DNA of 64,000 nt from Fistulifera solaris (GCA_030295235.1 AP026172.1:62001-126000), one strand, 5' to 3'. Shown: positions 48,461 through 60,086, counted from the stretch's first letter. Notes: generated by a model not told the origin, from the letters alone. Program-made: numbers and translations.

Positions 48461-48781
48461 TTATTCATCGTCTTCGGCTGCCACAAACGGATTTGCAATT
48501 TCCTCCGCCCCCTCTTGTGGTGCAACGAGCGACACTTGCGTTCCCCGTATTACTGCTAGCCCCAACTTTCGCGAGCGATCCGTCGGCATTTGCGTCTCCG
48601 CATCTCTTATATACTCAATGCAATCTTCTAAAACTAGATTCACGAGATCATCGTAGCCTTTCAGCGTCCCTTTCAACTCCCTGCCCCCGAGACACTTGAC
48701 TTGCACGACTGTATCCATCATTTTGGCCAATTCGAGAATCGATTCTTTCCGGTGTGTCGTTTTTTCGGTGCTTGTACTCAT
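48461..48781 (-). CDS. LSM7: Sm-like protein LSm7
   Basis: KESILELAK, GGREL.GTLKGYD.LVNLVL, LGL..IRGTQV..VAP..GAEEIANPF. Confidence 0.95.
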   Translation of the reverse strand: MSTSTEKTTHRKESILELAKMMDTVVQVKCLGGRELKGTLKGYDDLVNLVLEDCIEYIRDAETQMPTDRSRKLGLAVIRGTQVSLVAPQEGAEEIANPFVAAEDDE

Positions 48782-49177: not shown

Positions 49178-50683
49178 ATGATACGACAACAGAAACGTCC
49201 TAGCTTATGTATAGTTTTATGTATCATCATTTGGCTGCTTCCCACCATCGGCCATAGTTTCGCTCATCCTCGTCGTCGTTTCTTTGGCTTCTTTCGGTAT
49301 TATCGACCGTGGTCATTGGGTTTCTTTCTTTCCAATTTTCCTCAAGAAGAAGAAGACAAAGAAAGATTACAACAACAGCAGCAAGAATTTTTAAAACAGA
49401 CCCCTACCCCTTCACAGAATCCTATCACAATTCGATCGAACGCTTGTCACAACATGAACAGCTTCACTTCCTTCAAAGATCAATTCGGTCTTCCTGTTTG
49501 GCAGGATATATCCGAAAATCGATTCATTCGCATTGACTCTGAAGTAGCCTCTGATGATGGATTGACTACTAGGGAGCAAGTTTGGGAACAAATTTGTAAC
49601 GTCCGATCGATACAACAAAAGTACGGTCCCTCGAATCTTCTTTCTCGTACGTGGATTTTATCAATGCCATTGACTCCGTCAGCAGAAAACACATTCTCGG
49701 TGGCGCAATTTAACACACTGGCCGAAGGTTTGTCTGCAGGGCCCGATGTCCCGACACCTTTTCCTCCGTGCCTCAATCACGATACTCCAGCAAACAACAA
49801 CATCAACAGCAATAAGAATCAAGTCGAGATATTTGGAGGATTCACATCGATTCCTTACCCAGAGATAAGTTTGGATTTCGAACTACGGAAATGGCGTCTC
49901 TTGGAAGTTCTTCTGACTTCGGATCAGGCAGACGACGCCACATTCAAGCCGTGTGACCTTTTGGCCGTGGAAGAAATGGATCGATTTCATGGCTTCTTTG
50001 CTCCTATGTTACGTCTGTTTGGCTATCAAGGAGCCTTTTGTCCCAAGCGGCAATCCCCGGGCGTGAGTATGGGCTGGTACTCCGATGGCTGTGCCCTATT
50101 CTGGAACCGTCAAGTCTTTGAACTTGTCTCACAACGGCATCATGGATATTCTGTAGGAAATCAAGTGGCCTTGCATGTTGTACTGAGGTATCGAAGTAGT
50201 AATAGATTGCTGGTGGTCGTTGTGACGCATTTGAAAGCGAAATGCAATGCCACGAACGAAATGATACGCATGAAGCAACTACAAGAACTTTTGGTGCGAA
50301 TAGATGAGACAATACGGGACGTCCAATCAAAGGACCACGATTCCAATCAAACACCAGTTATTCTTCTGGGTGATTTTAATACGGATCCTCCGGCGACAGT
50401 CCCATCTCAGGACGCATCGTCGTTAAATCAGCTGATAACAGCATCAAATGGCTGTTTCCAGTCTCTTTATCCCTTGGAATCATCGACGCATTATACAACA
50501 TGGAAGACACGGGGATCGGATACAGTCAAGCGAGTCATTGATTACATTTTTTACCGGGGTCCTGTCAAACCAATAGCTGTCTTGCAAGTTCCTGAAGAAA
50601 CGGAACTGGAGCCGACCAAACTACCCGGACTACGCTATCCTTCCGATCACGTCCTCATCGCTGGTCGGTTTCATTTCTGTTGA
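49178..50683 (+). CDS. Nocturnin-like EEP phosphatase (CCR4 family) with N-terminal presequence
   Basis: QFNTLAEGLS, RKWRLLE, EEMD, DGCALFW, THLKA, GDFN, YTTWKTR, IDYIF, YPSDH. Confidence 0.88.
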   Translation: MIRQQKRPSLCIVLCIIIWLLPTIGHSFAHPRRRFFGFFRYYRPWSLGFFLSNFPQEEEDKERLQQQQQEFLKQTPTPSQNPITIRSNACHNMNSFTSFKDQFGLPVWQDISENRFIRIDSEVASDDGLTTREQVWEQICNVRSIQQKYGPSNLLSRTWILSMPLTPSAENTFSVAQFNTLAEGLSAGPDVPTPFPPCLNHDTPANNNINSNKNQVEIFGGFTSIPYPEISLDFELRKWRLLEVLLTSDQADDATFKPCDLLAVEEMDRFHGFFAPMLRLFGYQGAFCPKRQSPGVSMGWYSDGCALFWNRQVFELVSQRHHGYSVGNQVALHVVLRYRSSNRLLVVVVTHLKAKCNATNEMIRMKQLQELLVRIDETIRDVQSKDHDSNQTPVILLGDFNTDPPATVPSQDASSLNQLITASNGCFQSLYPLESSTHYTTWKTRGSDTVKRVIDYIFYRGPVKPIAVLQVPEETELEPTKLPGLRYPSDHVLIAGRFHFC

Positions 50684-52133: not shown

Positions 52134-53105
52134 ATGCAAGATCAATCACCTCTACTAAGCTTGCGAATGAAGTCTTCGGAATCGCAGTTAGTTCCATTCA
52201 AAGTTGACCAAGAAAGCTCGATGGATCAACTCGCCGTCATGATTTCTCAAGATCGAGAATACCGATGTCGAGACTATTTCGGACGACGAAGCGCTGCGAA
52301 ATCAATGCACACTCAATCACCGACTTCGACGCAGTTGGACTCAGTAGACGATACGCCTGACAGTATCTGTCGAGAGAAAATGGCCGAATGGAGCTATCGC
52401 GTTTGCGATCATTTTCACACCAAACGCGAAATCGTTGCGTACACCTTTTCCTATTTGGATCGTTTCGTGGATCGGTGTCACTGTGATCGAAAAGCGTTCA
52501 AATTGGCTGCCATGACGGCACTCTACATGTCTACTAAAATATTCAATCAGCAACAAATGTCACTGGGCAGCATATCGGAGTTGAGCCGAGGAGAGTTCGC
52601 GACTCATCATATTGCAGAGATGGAGAGTATAATCTTGCAAACACTCCAGTGGAAGATGAATCCTCCCACTGTACAAGCCTTTATTCGAGTGTTATTACCG
52701 GTGTTAGTCCAGGAAAGGAGTCCGCGCATTATCCAGAATTTGTGCAACCGCGCCATATTCTTTGCCGAATTGGCCGTATTCGATTACAGCTTAATTACCG
52801 AAGATCGTTACGTGTTGGCGATCGCGTGCATACTGAATGCGGTGGAAAGTATGGACGAGACTTTGTTACAACAATCCAGTTCTGCCCAGCTGTTGCTAAA
52901 CTTACAATCTTATCATTGCCTAGATCCCGATATGGAAGCACTGGGACATTGTCAGGGGCGTTTATGGATACTGTACGGTACTTCCGCTCAATTAAAAGAG
53001 GGCGACATCTTACCACTCCACATTCGAAAAGGGCTTGAAGTCGAATACTCGGGCTCATCGAAAGGGCACAGCGATCATTCACCCATTGGAGTTGGTCACT
53101 ATTGA
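52134..53105 (+). CDS. Cyclin (diatom-specific cyclin type)
   Basis: Cyclin box CREKMAEWSYRVCDHF...SYLDRF...LAAMTALYMSTK...MESIILQTLQWKMNPPT; start may be 52167. Confidence 0.9.
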   Translation: MQDQSPLLSLRMKSSESQLVPFKVDQESSMDQLAVMISQDREYRCRDYFGRRSAAKSMHTQSPTSTQLDSVDDTPDSICREKMAEWSYRVCDHFHTKREIVAYTFSYLDRFVDRCHCDRKAFKLAAMTALYMSTKIFNQQQMSLGSISELSRGEFATHHIAEMESIILQTLQWKMNPPTVQAFIRVLLPVLVQERSPRIIQNLCNRAIFFAELAVFDYSLITEDRYVLAIACILNAVESMDETLLQQSSSAQLLLNLQSYHCLDPDMEALGHCQGRLWILYGTSAQLKEGDILPLHIRKGLEVEYSGSSKGHSDHSPIGVGHY

Positions 53106-53670
53106 TATTCTGAATGAATAGAATAATCGTGTCATTTCTACTCAACGAAAGTCGAAAATCATAAACTCTAGATCTTTTTTGTGCCTATTTTTATCCGGAA
53201 CAGCAACACTCTAGAAAAGTGATTGGAAGAACCACGACACATCTACGGCATTTGCAAACAAACACAATTCATTGCAAGAGCAACGACAGGAACAACAGAG
53301 CAAACAATATCTAGAACTTTTTACTAATAATCGGCGGGACATAGCTGGGGCACGATTTGTTTTCCTCAATGGTGACGTGTGCCGAGGGTGGAGATTCATG
53401 CCACGCGTGATTGATCCGATCCTGTGAATCTGGGACAAAAATAATCCCTACATTTTGCAGCAGTACCTGATAACGGTAGTGATTTCTACGGTAGGCACTG
53501 TAATGGTAAAATGCGTGACGCAGCGACAGAGAAGGATTTTGTACAGTGTGCGCCCAATAAGACGCGAGGATCGCGTTTCGACTTTCGACCAGCAGCGATG
53601 CGCATTATTTATTTCTTGATGCTGCAAACAATAGTTTGTCAACTGTTGGTCTCTATTCCTCGTTTCAACC

Positions 53671-55434
53671 TTGAGAATGACAAAGAAAACAGACTTGTGG
53701 ACGTTTCCGTCTATTTTCGGCCTTGAAAAGTGTACTTATCGGTACATTGCGGCGGAATTTCATCCCTTTCACCAACACGAAGGAAATGTCTGTGCGCATC
53801 TCTTTACGACGAGTCTCGGTGTTTGGGGAGCCATTCAGTTGGCGCGTGTTCTCGGTTTTGCACTCTTACCCGTAGCGTACGGTATACTAGTCGCGGCCAC
53901 CACTCCGCTAATGACGGCCTTTCTGCACTCGCTCTTCCTTTACGGCGCGTTCCGTACCTCCGTACCGCTGGTGTTCGGAATGACATCCGAGTGGCAAGTC
54001 TGTCTTTTAGCGATTGCCGCAGGATATGGTTTACAGGATGTAGCGCATTGGGTGTTTCAAGAAAAGACGTATATGCAAAGTTATATGGGAGAAAAGAAAC
54101 CATGGATGCTGATCGTTCATTCGATTTGGTTGCTTCCGCTTGTGTTAGATAGTATGACCATGCGATACTGGTTTCTCCCCAAAATCGTTAGTCGGAATCG
54201 TATTATTGTAACACAGGTAGCCAGTCGTGAAGCAGTCGAAAATCTACGTAAATGGATTCACGAAAATGTCCCCGAGACACCCGAAACCACGCATGTTTGG
54301 CCGCACAAACAGGACGCCACTTCCCAAGCAACGGCAGCTTTGGAACATGATCCGGCCATTCTGGAAGGTTTCCGTCGTGTCTTTGCCGCGAAACACTTCG
54401 ATGTCTGCCCGGTGCAATCCATGAACGAGATTTATGTGACGGCCGTCGGAGCAAAGAAAGAAATCAATTCAGATGCGGTATTCTACACTCCGCACACCGA
54501 CGGGCCCTATTGGTTCTTGCCGGGCGCTTCCTTGTATCGGGTTTTGGTGGGAGTTACACCCAATCGCATGGTCCGCACTCGTTTTAACTTGCAGCATGAA
54601 TCACGCGACAAGGTAGTCGATATGTACGATGTCTTGGGCTTTGATTACAGTCGTGAGTTGCATTGGATCGACCACGTGCCTGGTGCGGTCAACGATGAGC
54701 GACGATCCTTATTGAAGCTTCATTTCATTGTTTATCCGAAAGGATGGCACTGGTACGGAGATTTATGTGCTTCTCTGCAAACGAACTACAATACTTGGGC
54801 TCGCAACAACTTTTTGCGCACACTTCGTCCCGAAGGTTGGTACGAATTTGGCTTGGCTTGGTGGATTTGGTTGACGACTTGGACCAATGCGATCTTTGAA
54901 GAACACGTCGGTTGGAGTAACCTTGTGTATTTGCTGGCTAGCTACGCGATGGGAGCGACTCCTTTCTTGATTCTGACTTCATTCCGTCACTATGTCGTCT
55001 ACATTACGACTTTTGCGTTCCGTGAGCCAGATGTTGGCCATGGGTACCTGATGCGTGACGCCAAATTGTACAAAACCGTCAGCATGATGCATATTGCTCG
55101 TCGAATCTTGCCGCTTGTCGCAATGCAGAACGATTGGCCGGCCGTTCTGTTGGCTTTTGCTGGATTCGGCACGACCTTGGCAGCGACCGCCCGCTTGGGA
55201 ATGGTCCGTACGTACTTTGGTACCGAGCTTGGTTTGGTGAAACCTATGTGGATTTCTGGATTCCCCTATGGATATATTCCGCATCCCATGATTGTGGGAC
55301 AGATCTTTGCATTCTATGTTATTTTAGGATGGTTTTGGCCGAGACTCACTCAAGAAGATATTGCTTTGTTAGTCACTCACATGGGCTTTTATACCGCACA
55401 CATGCTTCAAGAGATGTTCACCGGTAGCTATTGA
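53671..55434 (+). CDS. Multidomain membrane enzyme: Mpo1/DUF962-like + HxD..H Fe-oxygenase-like + phospholipid methyltransferase (PEMT)-like
   Basis: FHPFHQHEGNVCAH...LQDVAHWVFQE; SDAVFYTPHTDGP...FDYSRELHWI...R..LKLH; LGMVRTYFGTELG...GFPYGYIPHPMIVG. The true start may be 53598 via a 1-bp shift. Confidence 0.75.
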   Translation: MRMTKKTDLWTFPSIFGLEKCTYRYIAAEFHPFHQHEGNVCAHLFTTSLGVWGAIQLARVLGFALLPVAYGILVAATTPLMTAFLHSLFLYGAFRTSVPLVFGMTSEWQVCLLAIAAGYGLQDVAHWVFQEKTYMQSYMGEKKPWMLIVHSIWLLPLVLDSMTMRYWFLPKIVSRNRIIVTQVASREAVENLRKWIHENVPETPETTHVWPHKQDATSQATAALEHDPAILEGFRRVFAAKHFDVCPVQSMNEIYVTAVGAKKEINSDAVFYTPHTDGPYWFLPGASLYRVLVGVTPNRMVRTRFNLQHESRDKVVDMYDVLGFDYSRELHWIDHVPGAVNDERRSLLKLHFIVYPKGWHWYGDLCASLQTNYNTWARNNFLRTLRPEGWYEFGLAWWIWLTTWTNAIFEEHVGWSNLVYLLASYAMGATPFLILTSFRHYVVYITTFAFREPDVGHGYLMRDAKLYKTVSMMHIARRILPLVAMQNDWPAVLLAFAGFGTTLAATARLGMVRTYFGTELGLVKPMWISGFPYGYIPHPMIVGQIFAFYVILGWFWPRLTQEDIALLVTHMGFYTAHMLQEMFTGSY

Positions 55435-56585: not shown

Positions 56586-57687
56586 TGAGCCCGGCAATGA
56601 TTGGTGTTGATGATGCTATCGATCGATTGATTGCCATGAGACACCAAGAGGAAGTCAATTATTCCTACCGAAAGTACCTCCCTCCGTTTCCTGCTGGATC
56701 ATTTGATGGAAGGTTGAACGTAACATGGCGAGAAAAGATTTGTCAATGGAGCTACAACGTAGTAGACCAGTAAGTATTAACTTTCACAGAGTGCTTTTCT
56801 TCTTTGATTGCCGACCTTGCTAATTTACTAAATCTCCGATACAGTTTCGAACTATCGAGAGAAGTCGTTGCCGTAAGCATATCAATATTTGATCGCTTTC
56901 TAGCGACTCAAGGAAACAAGTGTAACGGCACGCTTGCCCTTTAACGTCGCTAACCACGTTACACATCGCCATCAAGCTGCACGAGAACAAGAAGATCAAG
57001 CTGACTACTTTAGCGAACTTGAGCAGAGGCCAGTTTGGGCCTGAACATATCGAGGAAATGGAGAGACGAATACTAAATGCTGTCGGCTGGAAAGTTCACC
57101 CACCGACGCACTATGCTTTCATCTCGGACTTTCTACTGCTTTTGCCTCAGGAAGCTAACCCTGTGGTCCGTAAAGAGCTGTTTGAACTTTCACGCTACAT
57201 TTCTGAGCTCGCTGTTTGCGACTCTTTCTTTGTTGATGTCAACAACTCAACAGTAGCTTTTGCAGCTCTGCTCTGTGTTATGGATGATATCAGTTATTCG
57301 AGGCTATCAGCGGGTTTGCGCGAGAAGATGTTAGTGGACATTTCCCTCAGAGTTGGTTTGAACCACTTCTCGCGCCCCGTTCAAGCTGCTCGTGAGCGTT
57401 TGAGAACAATGTTTATCAACAGCTCAGCGCATACCATGCTTGCGAGTTTCAACCAGAAAATGCACGACGCTACGTCCGATTTGCACTCCTTTGGGAATGC
57501 CTCGCTATCATCCACTGGATCTAGTTCTCCGTCCCTTCCAAGCAGATCGCGCACCAATTCCTTCGACAGCAAGAGCAGCTATCGATATTCCCCTTCACCA
57601 AGACGCCATTTTGTTGCAAGCGTCTCACCGATGCGCCATGGCCGATCCCACATGTCTTGCTCCCCCATTATGGCAGGCGTACAATGA
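56586..57687 (+). CDS. Cyclin (diatom-specific type); intron ~56770-56843, frameshift at ~56941
   Basis: WREKICQWSYNVVD|..LSREVVAVS.SIFDRFL...LHIAIKL...EMERRILNAVGWKVHPPT; Ser-rich tail. Confidence 0.88.
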
Positions 57688-58670: not shown

Positions 58671-60086
58671 ATGGAGACGAGCGATTCCTTTTTTCACAAG
58701 TTAATCAAGGGCAAGCGACCTTTGGAAGTGTCGTCGGATCCGTCTTTCGAAAATGGAATAACCGAAAATACTGACGCAGAAATTCATGTATCCGGGTCGA
58801 AGAAGCAAAGAGTCGTTCGTTGCTTCGATGAGGATCATGTCGCTTCTCCTACATTTTCTCATTTTCTTGAGAGCTCTCACTTTAAAAACCAGGAACAAAA
58901 CGTTTCATCCTTGCAATCATCGCGCCTATCCGATACAAACGTAGAATCAACGAACAACAACCGAGAAACAAAAGTAACATTGAGCGCTCATTCTTCTACC
59001 GCCACACCCTTCCCATCGACGTCTGAATTGAAAGTAGTATCTGATGGTGAGACAGAGTCGGTGATGGCAGCATCATCATCTTCTTCACTTGTCAAACTGG
59101 AATCCGCCATCACACATGAATTGACGGAGCAGTGCGAATCTCATGCACCAGCGTTCAAATTGTCCAAGATGACTCCAGTCTCCGTTACGCCTTATCCCTC
59201 CTCTGTCAACCTAAGTGAAGTGAAGGTGAATGTAGAGGATGCAGTGCGCTTAGAATACCTTTCTCCTAAAAAAGAAGACGTGTCAGTGCGTCGCGCTGAG
59301 GATTCGCCGGCAATAGAATCTCCCTTGAATATGACGGTTCAAAGTGCTCAATCAAAGCAGATCAACGGAAGGAATGGCGTTCGGCGCGTATTCGTTCTTC
59401 TCATTTTGTTGCTGCTTGCTCTGTTCTCTTCCTTACGCTGGAATTCGAGACCAGTTCTGAGGAGTGAAAATACTGTTTTCGTTCCTGGTGCGGGTTTTTC
59501 AGGTTTTTGGTATACATTAGGAAAACTTCGAAGTATTCCTAGTCCGTCGGAGAAAGAATTTTACTGCTATTCCTCGGGATGTTTGGCGGTTGTGACTATC
59601 TTGCGCAATTTGACGGTCAATGAAGTGTATGACAAGGCTAGAGCTGTTCAGGTTCGATGGCAGGAGGGTCATCTTCACCGCTATGAAGTTGTAGCTTCCT
59701 TCGTCGATGATCTATTGAGTGACATTGTAGTTACAGAAACAACAAATGCTACGAGGTTCGACGCCACATCTCTTCTATCGGTGAACATCATCACTTCCAT
59801 TTACCGCGGGGGCCCCATCCTGGCTTCAGAAATTAGAAGAGCCGAGTCGCTCGACGAATTGAAAACGATGCTTTTGCAGACGACATGGATTCCCTTTGCT
59901 GTGGGAGGTTCTTTGTGGCACGACAGCCATATGGACGGAGCTTTCACTGCGAACCAACACCCTTTGTGTGCTTTGGAAGTCGGATTACCATGGAATTTTG
60001 ACATGGTTACAAATGCGGTGAACGTCAACCTCGGAAAAGATAAAGTGGAGAAGTTTTACAACATGGGTCTGGGACATGGGTTCTAA
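58671..60086 (+). CDS. Patatin-like phospholipase with disordered N-terminus and one TM
   Basis: PGAGFSGFW (Gly loop), CYSSG (nucleophile elbow), TTWIPF, MDGAF. Confidence 0.75.
   Translation: METSDSFFHKLIKGKRPLEVSSDPSFENGITENTDAEIHVSGSKKQRVVRCFDEDHVASPTFSHFLESSHFKNQEQNVSSLQSSRLSDTNVESTNNNRETKVTLSAHSSTATPFPSTSELKVVSDGETESVMAASSSSSLVKLESAITHELTEQCESHAPAFKLSKMTPVSVTPYPSSVNLSEVKVNVEDAVRLEYLSPKKEDVSVRRAEDSPAIESPLNMTVQSAQSKQINGRNGVRRVFVLLILLLLALFSSLRWNSRPVLRSENTVFVPGAGFSGFWYTLGKLRSIPSPSEKEFYCYSSGCLAVVTILRNLTVNEVYDKARAVQVRWQEGHLHRYEVVASFVDDLLSDIVVTETTNATRFDATSLLSVNIITSIYRGGPILASEIRRAESLDELKTMLLQTTWIPFAVGGSLWHDSHMDGAFTANQHPLCALEVGLPWNFDMVTNAVNVNLGKDKVEKFYNMGLGHGF

Follow-up and report, generated by a model that had tools for sequence, protein, structure and literature searches.

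What is a diatom membrane protein for that carries in one chain an Mpo1-like domain, a 2-oxoglutarate oxygenase and a PEMT-like methyltransferase? The question is posed by a reading frame in a 64,000-nucleotide stretch of Fistulifera solaris DNA (GCA_030295235.1 AP026172.1:62001-126000; "the window" below), and the parts of its answer are not equally firm. Gene neighborhoods and genome content tie the family strongly to betaine-lipid metabolism, and make it very probable that its members act on DGTS or in the DGTS pathway. With distinctly less assurance, yet with the balance tilted in its favor, the family protein can be put forward as a candidate for the enzyme that converts DGTS to DGTA, a substrate and a product that we infer.

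Where does the gene begin? A sequence-only reading of this DNA had described an intronless, three-part ORF of 587 aa at 53598..55434; its end and its three-part makeup hold, and its start has to be moved. The ATG at 53598 is rejected: its frame is a different one, closed by a stop after 42 codons. (A technical point: four GT-AG pairs could in principle link 53598 to the frame of the ORF, and nothing supports them; four contig sets of uncertain type contain no splice joints at the ORF. The count of 587 aa is that of the ORF read from a TTG at 53671.) ATG 53677 is the likely start, because cluster mates begin at the same Met: five of the six are 585 aa long, the sixth 589 aa, and in the Fistulifera solaris cluster mate GAX21526.1 (96% identity) the first Met is identical in position. 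The features that follow from this start are:

53677..55434, + strand: three-domain membrane protein, 585 aa, single exon (ORF from ATG 53677)
53731..54171, + strand: Mpo1-like (DUF962) transmembrane domain, residues ~19-165 (Pfam matches of homologues, family profile, conservation)
54190..54801, + strand: soluble Fe(II)/2-oxoglutarate oxygenase (DSBH) domain, residues ~172-375 (structure comparison, Foldseek, conservation)
54493-54501 (H273-x-D275), 54661 (H329) and 54703 (R343), + strand: predicted facial triad and basic residue of the oxygenase (conservation)
54802..55431, + strand: helical membrane region ending in a PEMT/ICMT-like methyltransferase domain (Pfam matches of homologues, structure comparison)
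55210 (TYFG.ELG), 55261 (FPYG), 55279 (PHPM) and 55399 (H..QE), + strand: C-terminal motifs (sequence)

The three-domain fusion is real. An AlphaFold2 model of the full ORF product (mean pLDDT 90.8, pTM 0.87) lays out N-terminal helices, a beta-rich middle and C-terminal helices, and the protein would be an ER-type membrane enzyme. The motifs FHQHEGNVCAH (53767), QDVAHWVFQE (54034), HTD (54493) and the distal His (54661) lie where they had been reported, and the remaining ones were located at 54703 (R..LK), 55210 (TYFGTELG), 55261 (FPYG) and 55279 (PHPM). These motifs are not a product of chance, since they are kept through a 56-sequence alignment of diverse homologues in which mean column identity is 26%: H32, H41, H124, E129, H273, D275, H329, E517, P537 and M538 are present in every row. 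Among 8000 scored candidates 166 are homologues, the best 120 of which, the query itself excepted, are 52-71% identical to it. Searched alone, the query is weak in Pfam (PEMT at 19.5 bits against a cut-off of 25, and no match to Mpo1), so that what carries the domain calls is the homologues and the fold model; DUF3419 (PF11899) is absent from the query in the Pfam search, NCBIfam yields zero matches for it, and the family profile has zero matches among PDB sequences.

That the N-terminal part belongs with Mpo1/DUF962, as had been proposed, is borne out in both directions. At E<=1 (best 1.1e-5), 22 of the 60 close homologues match PF06127, which reaches 25.3 bits, over a cut-off of 24, in a Plesiocystis homologue (neighbors in frame); conversely, a profile of the N-terminal domain picks out, at 4e-10, two stand-alone Mpo1-like proteins, L202 and L203. 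Query and yeast Mpo1 have in common a transmembrane domain that carries the motifs H..N...H and Q...H...E, and the putative metal site comprises H32, N37, H41, Q120, H124 and E129, plus H148. The last of these, an extra His conserved in 52/56 rows, sets the query domain apart from yeast Mpo1, as does its fusion to two further enzymes. In the accessible text of PMC9624242, Mpo1 belongs to fatty-acid metabolism, being an Fe(II) dioxygenase that alpha-oxidizes 2-hydroxy fatty acid.

All 50 listed rows of a VIA structure comparison align to the middle domain, the top one at Z 11.9 (rmsd 3.2 over 164 residues); Z>=8 is reached by 80 chains, and 2OG oxygenases dominate among the matches listed. At E<=0.001 Foldseek returns nine matches to the middle domain, each of them either AndA or OkaE, at prob 1.00, which is the DSBH result that the sequence-only reading had led one to expect. 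Its further claim, of an HxD...H oxygenase of the Fe(II)/2OG type, agrees with a triad kept throughout the alignment and with an arginine, R343, kept in 55/56 rows and placed by the AlphaFold2 model at the start of the strand that follows H329. AviO1, vCPH, AsqJ, AndA, OkaE and SnoK (PhyH/prolyl-hydroxylase type) share with the query the DSBH fold and the order HxD...H, then Arg; the query differs from them in being membrane-anchored and in having no Pfam family for the domain, and is 5-17% identical to them. The oxygenase assignment is one of modeled fold, and a common fold does not show the reaction. OkaE and SnoK form C-C bonded rings; the place of OkaE among the fold matches would, by analogy, be a precedent for ring formation only.

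In the C-terminal part, PF04191 matches 60/60 close homologues at E<=1 (best 3.2e-9) and, in several distant and split homologues, scores 26-41 bits (up to 40.8), above the cut-off of 25. For this part the VIA comparison ranks ICMT (5vg9) first, with a middling score (Z 6.8; rmsd 4.0 over 119 residues) that ties it with unrelated helical proteins, Ma-ICMT and a sterol reductase also being among the rows. The PEMT/Opi3-like methyltransferase that had been read from the motifs is supported, as a PEMT/ICMT-like domain, through the homologues; the PEMT hits anticipated from Foldseek did not appear (the C-terminal model has zero matches at E<=0.001). PEMT/Opi3 and ICMT (PF04191, PF04140) have in common with the query an FG.ELG...FPY..PHPM signature and a C-terminal QE. 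The query differs in falling below the Pfam cut-off, in being fused, and in an apparent tie to a phosphate-free lipid instead of PC.

The family spans diatoms, chrysophytes, other protists, Planctomycetes and Myxococcota, and giant viruses have a truncated form. A profile search finds 813 representatives at E<=0.001; among the best 150 of these, 62 have the domain order of the query, nine are circularly permuted (oxygenase-PEMT-Mpo1) and the remainder are partial. The three domains thus remain together even in circular permutation. Eukaryotic carriers that can be named are pennate diatoms, Chaetoceros, the chrysophytes Epipyxis and a strain labeled Ochromonas, Chromera, the dinoflagellate Effrenium, Monosiga and Diplonema. 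One Atlas cluster has Chlorophyta as its commonest phylum, another is mostly Nucleocytoviricota, and the metagenome loci of one large clade resemble Mamiellophyceae in their GC content and compactness. No orthologue was confirmed by name among the hits for Phaeodactylum, Ostreococcus, brown algae or cryptophytes; fungal carriers are likewise missing from the named hits, which is no test of absence. A GTDB scan yields 31 bacterial loci, and this number is a floor, because the one peptide pattern that the scan used is missing from the query and from the split form alike.

Some members lack the full set of domains. In a distant, bacterial "split" subfamily (L112-L118, L208/L209) PEMT and oxygenase are separate genes and there is no linked Mpo1 part, with one PEMT-oxygenase fusion (L118) and one convergent pair (G290); stand-alone Mpo1-like genes are present, unlinked, in 4/5 split-form genomes. 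The split subfamily may make another derivative of DGTS. TMEM164-family genes adjoin three of seven split loci (L114:1342-2454, L115:7907-8665, L117:6596-7369), once downstream of btaB, which hints at a lipid-remodeling role for bacterial TMEM164 proteins. As a required stand-in for Mpo1, TMEM164 was considered and rejected: it is not homologous to the Mpo1 domain (hhalign probability 0.2), and it occurs in just two of five other split-form genomes. The viral form (L034-L111) is ~350-470 aa long, on giant-virus-type contigs and often in a conserved neighborhood; 76 of the 80 viral loci taken from 111 keep the oxygenase and membrane helices, without the PEMT loop and without the Mpo1 part. It is possibly an enzyme that oxidizes betaine lipid of the host.

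Decay can also be domain-specific. Among diatom copies (P0287/P0142, P0118, P0141), Mpo1 and PEMT motifs are lost and the oxygenase is intact, or the reverse: the Chaetoceros debilis copy (the P0287/P0142 cluster) has lost its Mpo1 and PHPM motifs, and in the Thalassiothrix copy (P0118) the Mpo1 site has decayed. Chaetoceros is a producer of DGCC, and the decayed Mpo1 site of C. debilis would fit a loss of DGTA there. The P0218 cluster (13 members) runs oxygenase-PEMT and then into a different His-rich membrane domain where Mpo1 would be.

The connection to DGTS is made by neighbors, by co-occurrence and, in one instance, by fusion. Neighbor identity being judged by Pfam, 20 of the 31 bacterial loci have btaA and/or btaB adjoining the family gene: btaA in 19, and in the remaining one only btaB; DUF3419 is found in 28/31 carrier genomes and in 0/14 control genomes. 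In 201 Pirellulales genomes BtaA is present in 93 and the family gene in 10, all 10 among the 93 (p=3.4e-4); setting aside three genomes known beforehand leaves 7/7 carriers BtaA-positive against 90/198 (p=0.0035), p values in which related genomes are counted although kin are not independent. In a 251-genome, Myxococcota-centered sample around Plesiocystis, 3/3 carriers are BtaA-positive against 70/251. A quick-method tree built on 125 rows of the oxygenase region places btaA/B linkage at no fewer than five separate positions (>=5), split forms and one BTA1 fusion included. Its geometry varies: a btaA-btaB-X operon in Pirellulaceae (X being the family gene), X-btaA-btaB in a BD1-7 gammaproteobacterium (L016), convergent linkage in L009, L014 and, separately placed in the tree, L119, and split PEMT and oxygenase genes beside btaAB at five of the seven Pirellulales loci L112-L118. 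The fusion, P0231, is a long-branch protein in which all three domains are joined to a complete BTA1; its records (P0231/P0308) differ at one residue and are counted once, and among 463 proteins retrieved DUF3419 occurs in this fusion only. (Fusions of 1246-3555 aa are not found among 7998 candidates, which is weak evidence, the known fusion of 1231 aa being just below that range.) The frameshifted btaA beside the gene in L024 and L117, and its absence from L031, may be noted in passing.

BTA1 is absent from the 64-kb window; btaA/B were not found nearby in 78 of 80 metagenome loci (from 393), most of which appear eukaryotic or short, nor in any of 80 viral loci. A metallophosphoesterase-type ORF recurs as a neighbor (14 clustered ORFs from 13 loci), and two further loci have PhoD close by, an arrangement that fits a phosphate-stress module.

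Does the family protein then make DGTS? BtaA/BtaB and the fused BTA1 (PF11899 and a class I methyltransferase) have no domain in common with it: to them it is a neighbor, a co-occurring partner and, once, a fusion partner. Moreover, 83/93 BtaA genomes in the Pirellulales and 67/70 in the Myxococcota-centered sample lack the family gene; most BtaA genomes being without it, the gene is not needed to make DGTS. Probably the protein modifies DGTS instead of making it, behaving as an optional post-DGTS step.

Diatoms, brown algae and other plankton have DGTA as a major membrane lipid, one that contains no phosphorus. Vogel and Eichenberger reportedly found in 1992 that methionine C1 is lost and C3 and C4 are kept. 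The accessible text of a 2023 paper describes the DGTA enzyme and its mechanism as unknown, and DGCC synthesis likewise (PMC10685587); the carboxyl of DGTA is there, and in PMC6383925, ascribed to recarboxylation. P. tricornutum and O. tauri are stated to make DGTA, yet to carry just a BTA1-like candidate (PMC5825098, PMC7407893); the assignment of Phaeodactylum betaine lipid is ambiguous in such literature as was accessible. For Cryptococcus, DGTA production is reported (PMC6383925), ten freshwater dinoflagellates are reported with DGCC (PMC4837943), and one study assigns the betaine lipids of Mamiellales to DGTS by phylogeny only (PMC7074452). In bacteria, according to the accessible part of PMC10667739, there is as yet no identification of DGTA, and the MS2 fragments of DGTS and DGTA are alike. 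The earlier remark that no characterized protein has this architecture agrees with a literature search, mostly of open papers, in which no paper names a DGTA-forming enzyme or the three-domain architecture.

How might DGTS become its isomer DGTA? The enzyme would work downstream of BTA1/BtaAB on the DGTS head group, each domain doing its family's usual kind of reaction: 1) The Fe/2OG domain would remove two electrons and bond C3 of the homoserine moiety to an N-methyl carbon, for instance by way of an azetidinium ring; water, opening this ring at C2, would leave a 2-hydroxy acid that bears a dimethylaminomethyl branch. 2) The Mpo1-like domain would alpha-oxidize the 2-hydroxy acid, C1 leaving as CO2 and C2 becoming the new carboxyl. 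3) The PEMT-like domain would methylate the dimethylamine with SAM, restoring the trimethylamine and yielding DGTA. C2 would thus end as the carboxyl and the N-methyl carbon as a methylene, the new methyl would come from SAM, and recarboxylation would not be needed. The product derived from the azetidinium would offer the substrate types of Mpo1 (a 2-hydroxy acid) and of PEMT/Opi3 (a dimethylamine). By our own bookkeeping the formal oxidation-state sum for DGTS to DGTA is six electrons; one 2OG turnover (two) and one Mpo1 turnover (four) would supply them, so that the domain set would match what DGTA needs. Two other routes were discarded on chemical grounds: one through a vinyl-ammonium alkene and C-methylation, which places a cation next to N+, and a plain Stevens 1,2-shift, which keeps C1 and leaves the head one carbon too long. 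A DGTA synthase that acts by N-methyl capture, loss of C1 and re-methylation (a reaction undescribed for lipids) is a tentative proposal; the exact course of the carbon atoms, every step of it chemistry on paper, is likewise more probably wrong than right.

Pennate diatoms and chrysophytes carry well-conserved copies, which speaks for DGTA. Against it stands the literature model of decarboxylation and recarboxylation, not obviously feasible for this protein, which has no carboxylase; against the full route stand the split forms without linked Mpo1 and the oxygenase-only viral forms, from which it would seem that the oxygenase is useful without the whole route. On the same side weigh the bacterial record, still without DGTA, and the named hits, in which Phaeodactylum, Ostreococcus, brown algae and cryptophytes do not figure; further, the DGCC of dinoflagellates beside a carrier such as Effrenium, the carriers Monosiga and Diplonema, the DGTA of Cryptococcus beside named hits without a fungus, the phylogeny-based assignment of Mamiellales to DGTS, and the window and metagenome loci with no btaA/B or BTA1 close by (all but two of 80 metagenome loci). 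The btaAB linkage would also fit a protein that modifies the DGTS head group into a different, undescribed betaine lipid, be it hydroxylated, chain-shortened or re-methylated. This is unlikely, although it is the alternative with most to be said for it: split and viral forms would be unable to run the full route, there are carriers in lineages for which no report of DGTA was found, and bacterial DGTA is not on record in the accessible text of PMC10667739. It has to contend, however, with those conserved diatom and chrysophyte copies, with a domain set that matches the loss of C1 and the six electrons of DGTA, and with the standing of DGTA, alone among the known lipids derived from DGTS in having no enzyme assigned, as PMC10685587 has it. 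Two oxidative domains would also serve to degrade or recycle DGTS by oxidative removal of the head group, and oxygenase-only giant-virus copies could strip host lipid in this way; a conserved methyltransferase domain and a position inside the btaA-btaB operon suit synthesis better, and degradation is very improbable.

Or are the acyl chains the target? LpxO and OlsC 2-hydroxylate fatty acyl groups; the oxygenase would do likewise, the Mpo1 domain would shorten the chain, and the PEMT domain would separately methylate PE or a DGTS precursor. The known reaction of Mpo1 (PMC9624242, in its accessible text), the database names of homologues, which are those of phospholipid methyltransferases, and the TMEM164-family gene at three of seven split loci agree with such a scheme. 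What makes it improbable is that it leaves unexplained both the strict dependence on BtaA and the persistence of a three-domain fusion through circular permutation, and that BtaB already provides three methyls and PC synthesis would cost phosphate. The sequence-only reading had itself guessed at betaine-lipid head-group formation (DGTA or DGCC) or sphingolipid remodeling. The btaA-btaB operons, the co-occurrence and the BTA1 fusion favor the betaine-lipid guess in general; DGCC in particular could appeal to a dinoflagellate carrier, Effrenium, and to a synthesis that likewise has no enzyme in the account of PMC10685587. Its acetal-choline head, though, would not be easily reached from DGTS. 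Furthermore, the copy in Chaetoceros debilis, of a genus that produces DGCC, lacks Mpo1 and PHPM motifs. Sphingolipid remodeling finds no support in the neighborhoods scanned (zero sphingolipid genes among 69 neighbors), and action on either of these lipids is scarcely to be expected.

Conversion of DGTS to DGTA, if true, would have consequences beyond diatoms. One gene would close the DGTA pathway and serve as a marker for DGTA producers in ocean data; Planctomycetes and Myxococcota would make DGTA, hidden behind DGTS of equal mass, and its use as a purely eukaryotic biomarker would be called into question. From the split and viral forms one would expect additional betaine lipids not yet described (roughly +30 and +16 Da against DGTS). 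Rebuilding of the head group would overturn the decarboxylation/recarboxylation model, and the route proposed here, should it hold, would be a new kind of lipid head-group rearrangement. A decades-old gap would become a single-gene question.

The other genes of the window touch on different matters. A cyclin gene (Pfam Cyclin_N) lies upstream at 52134-53105 and a second cyclin-like ORF, recognized by eye only, downstream at 57058-57687; the two resemble diatom cyclin expansions. An exonuclease-endonuclease-phosphatase protein, which we take to be nocturnin-like, is encoded at 49178-50683; it and the upstream cyclin are uninformative on lipids. An LSm-like exon was noted, by eye, at 48461-48781. 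Finally, a 471-aa ORF at 58671-60086, with zero Pfam matches, has in its C-terminal half a G.G..G...G.SSG pattern reminiscent of patatin-like lipases.
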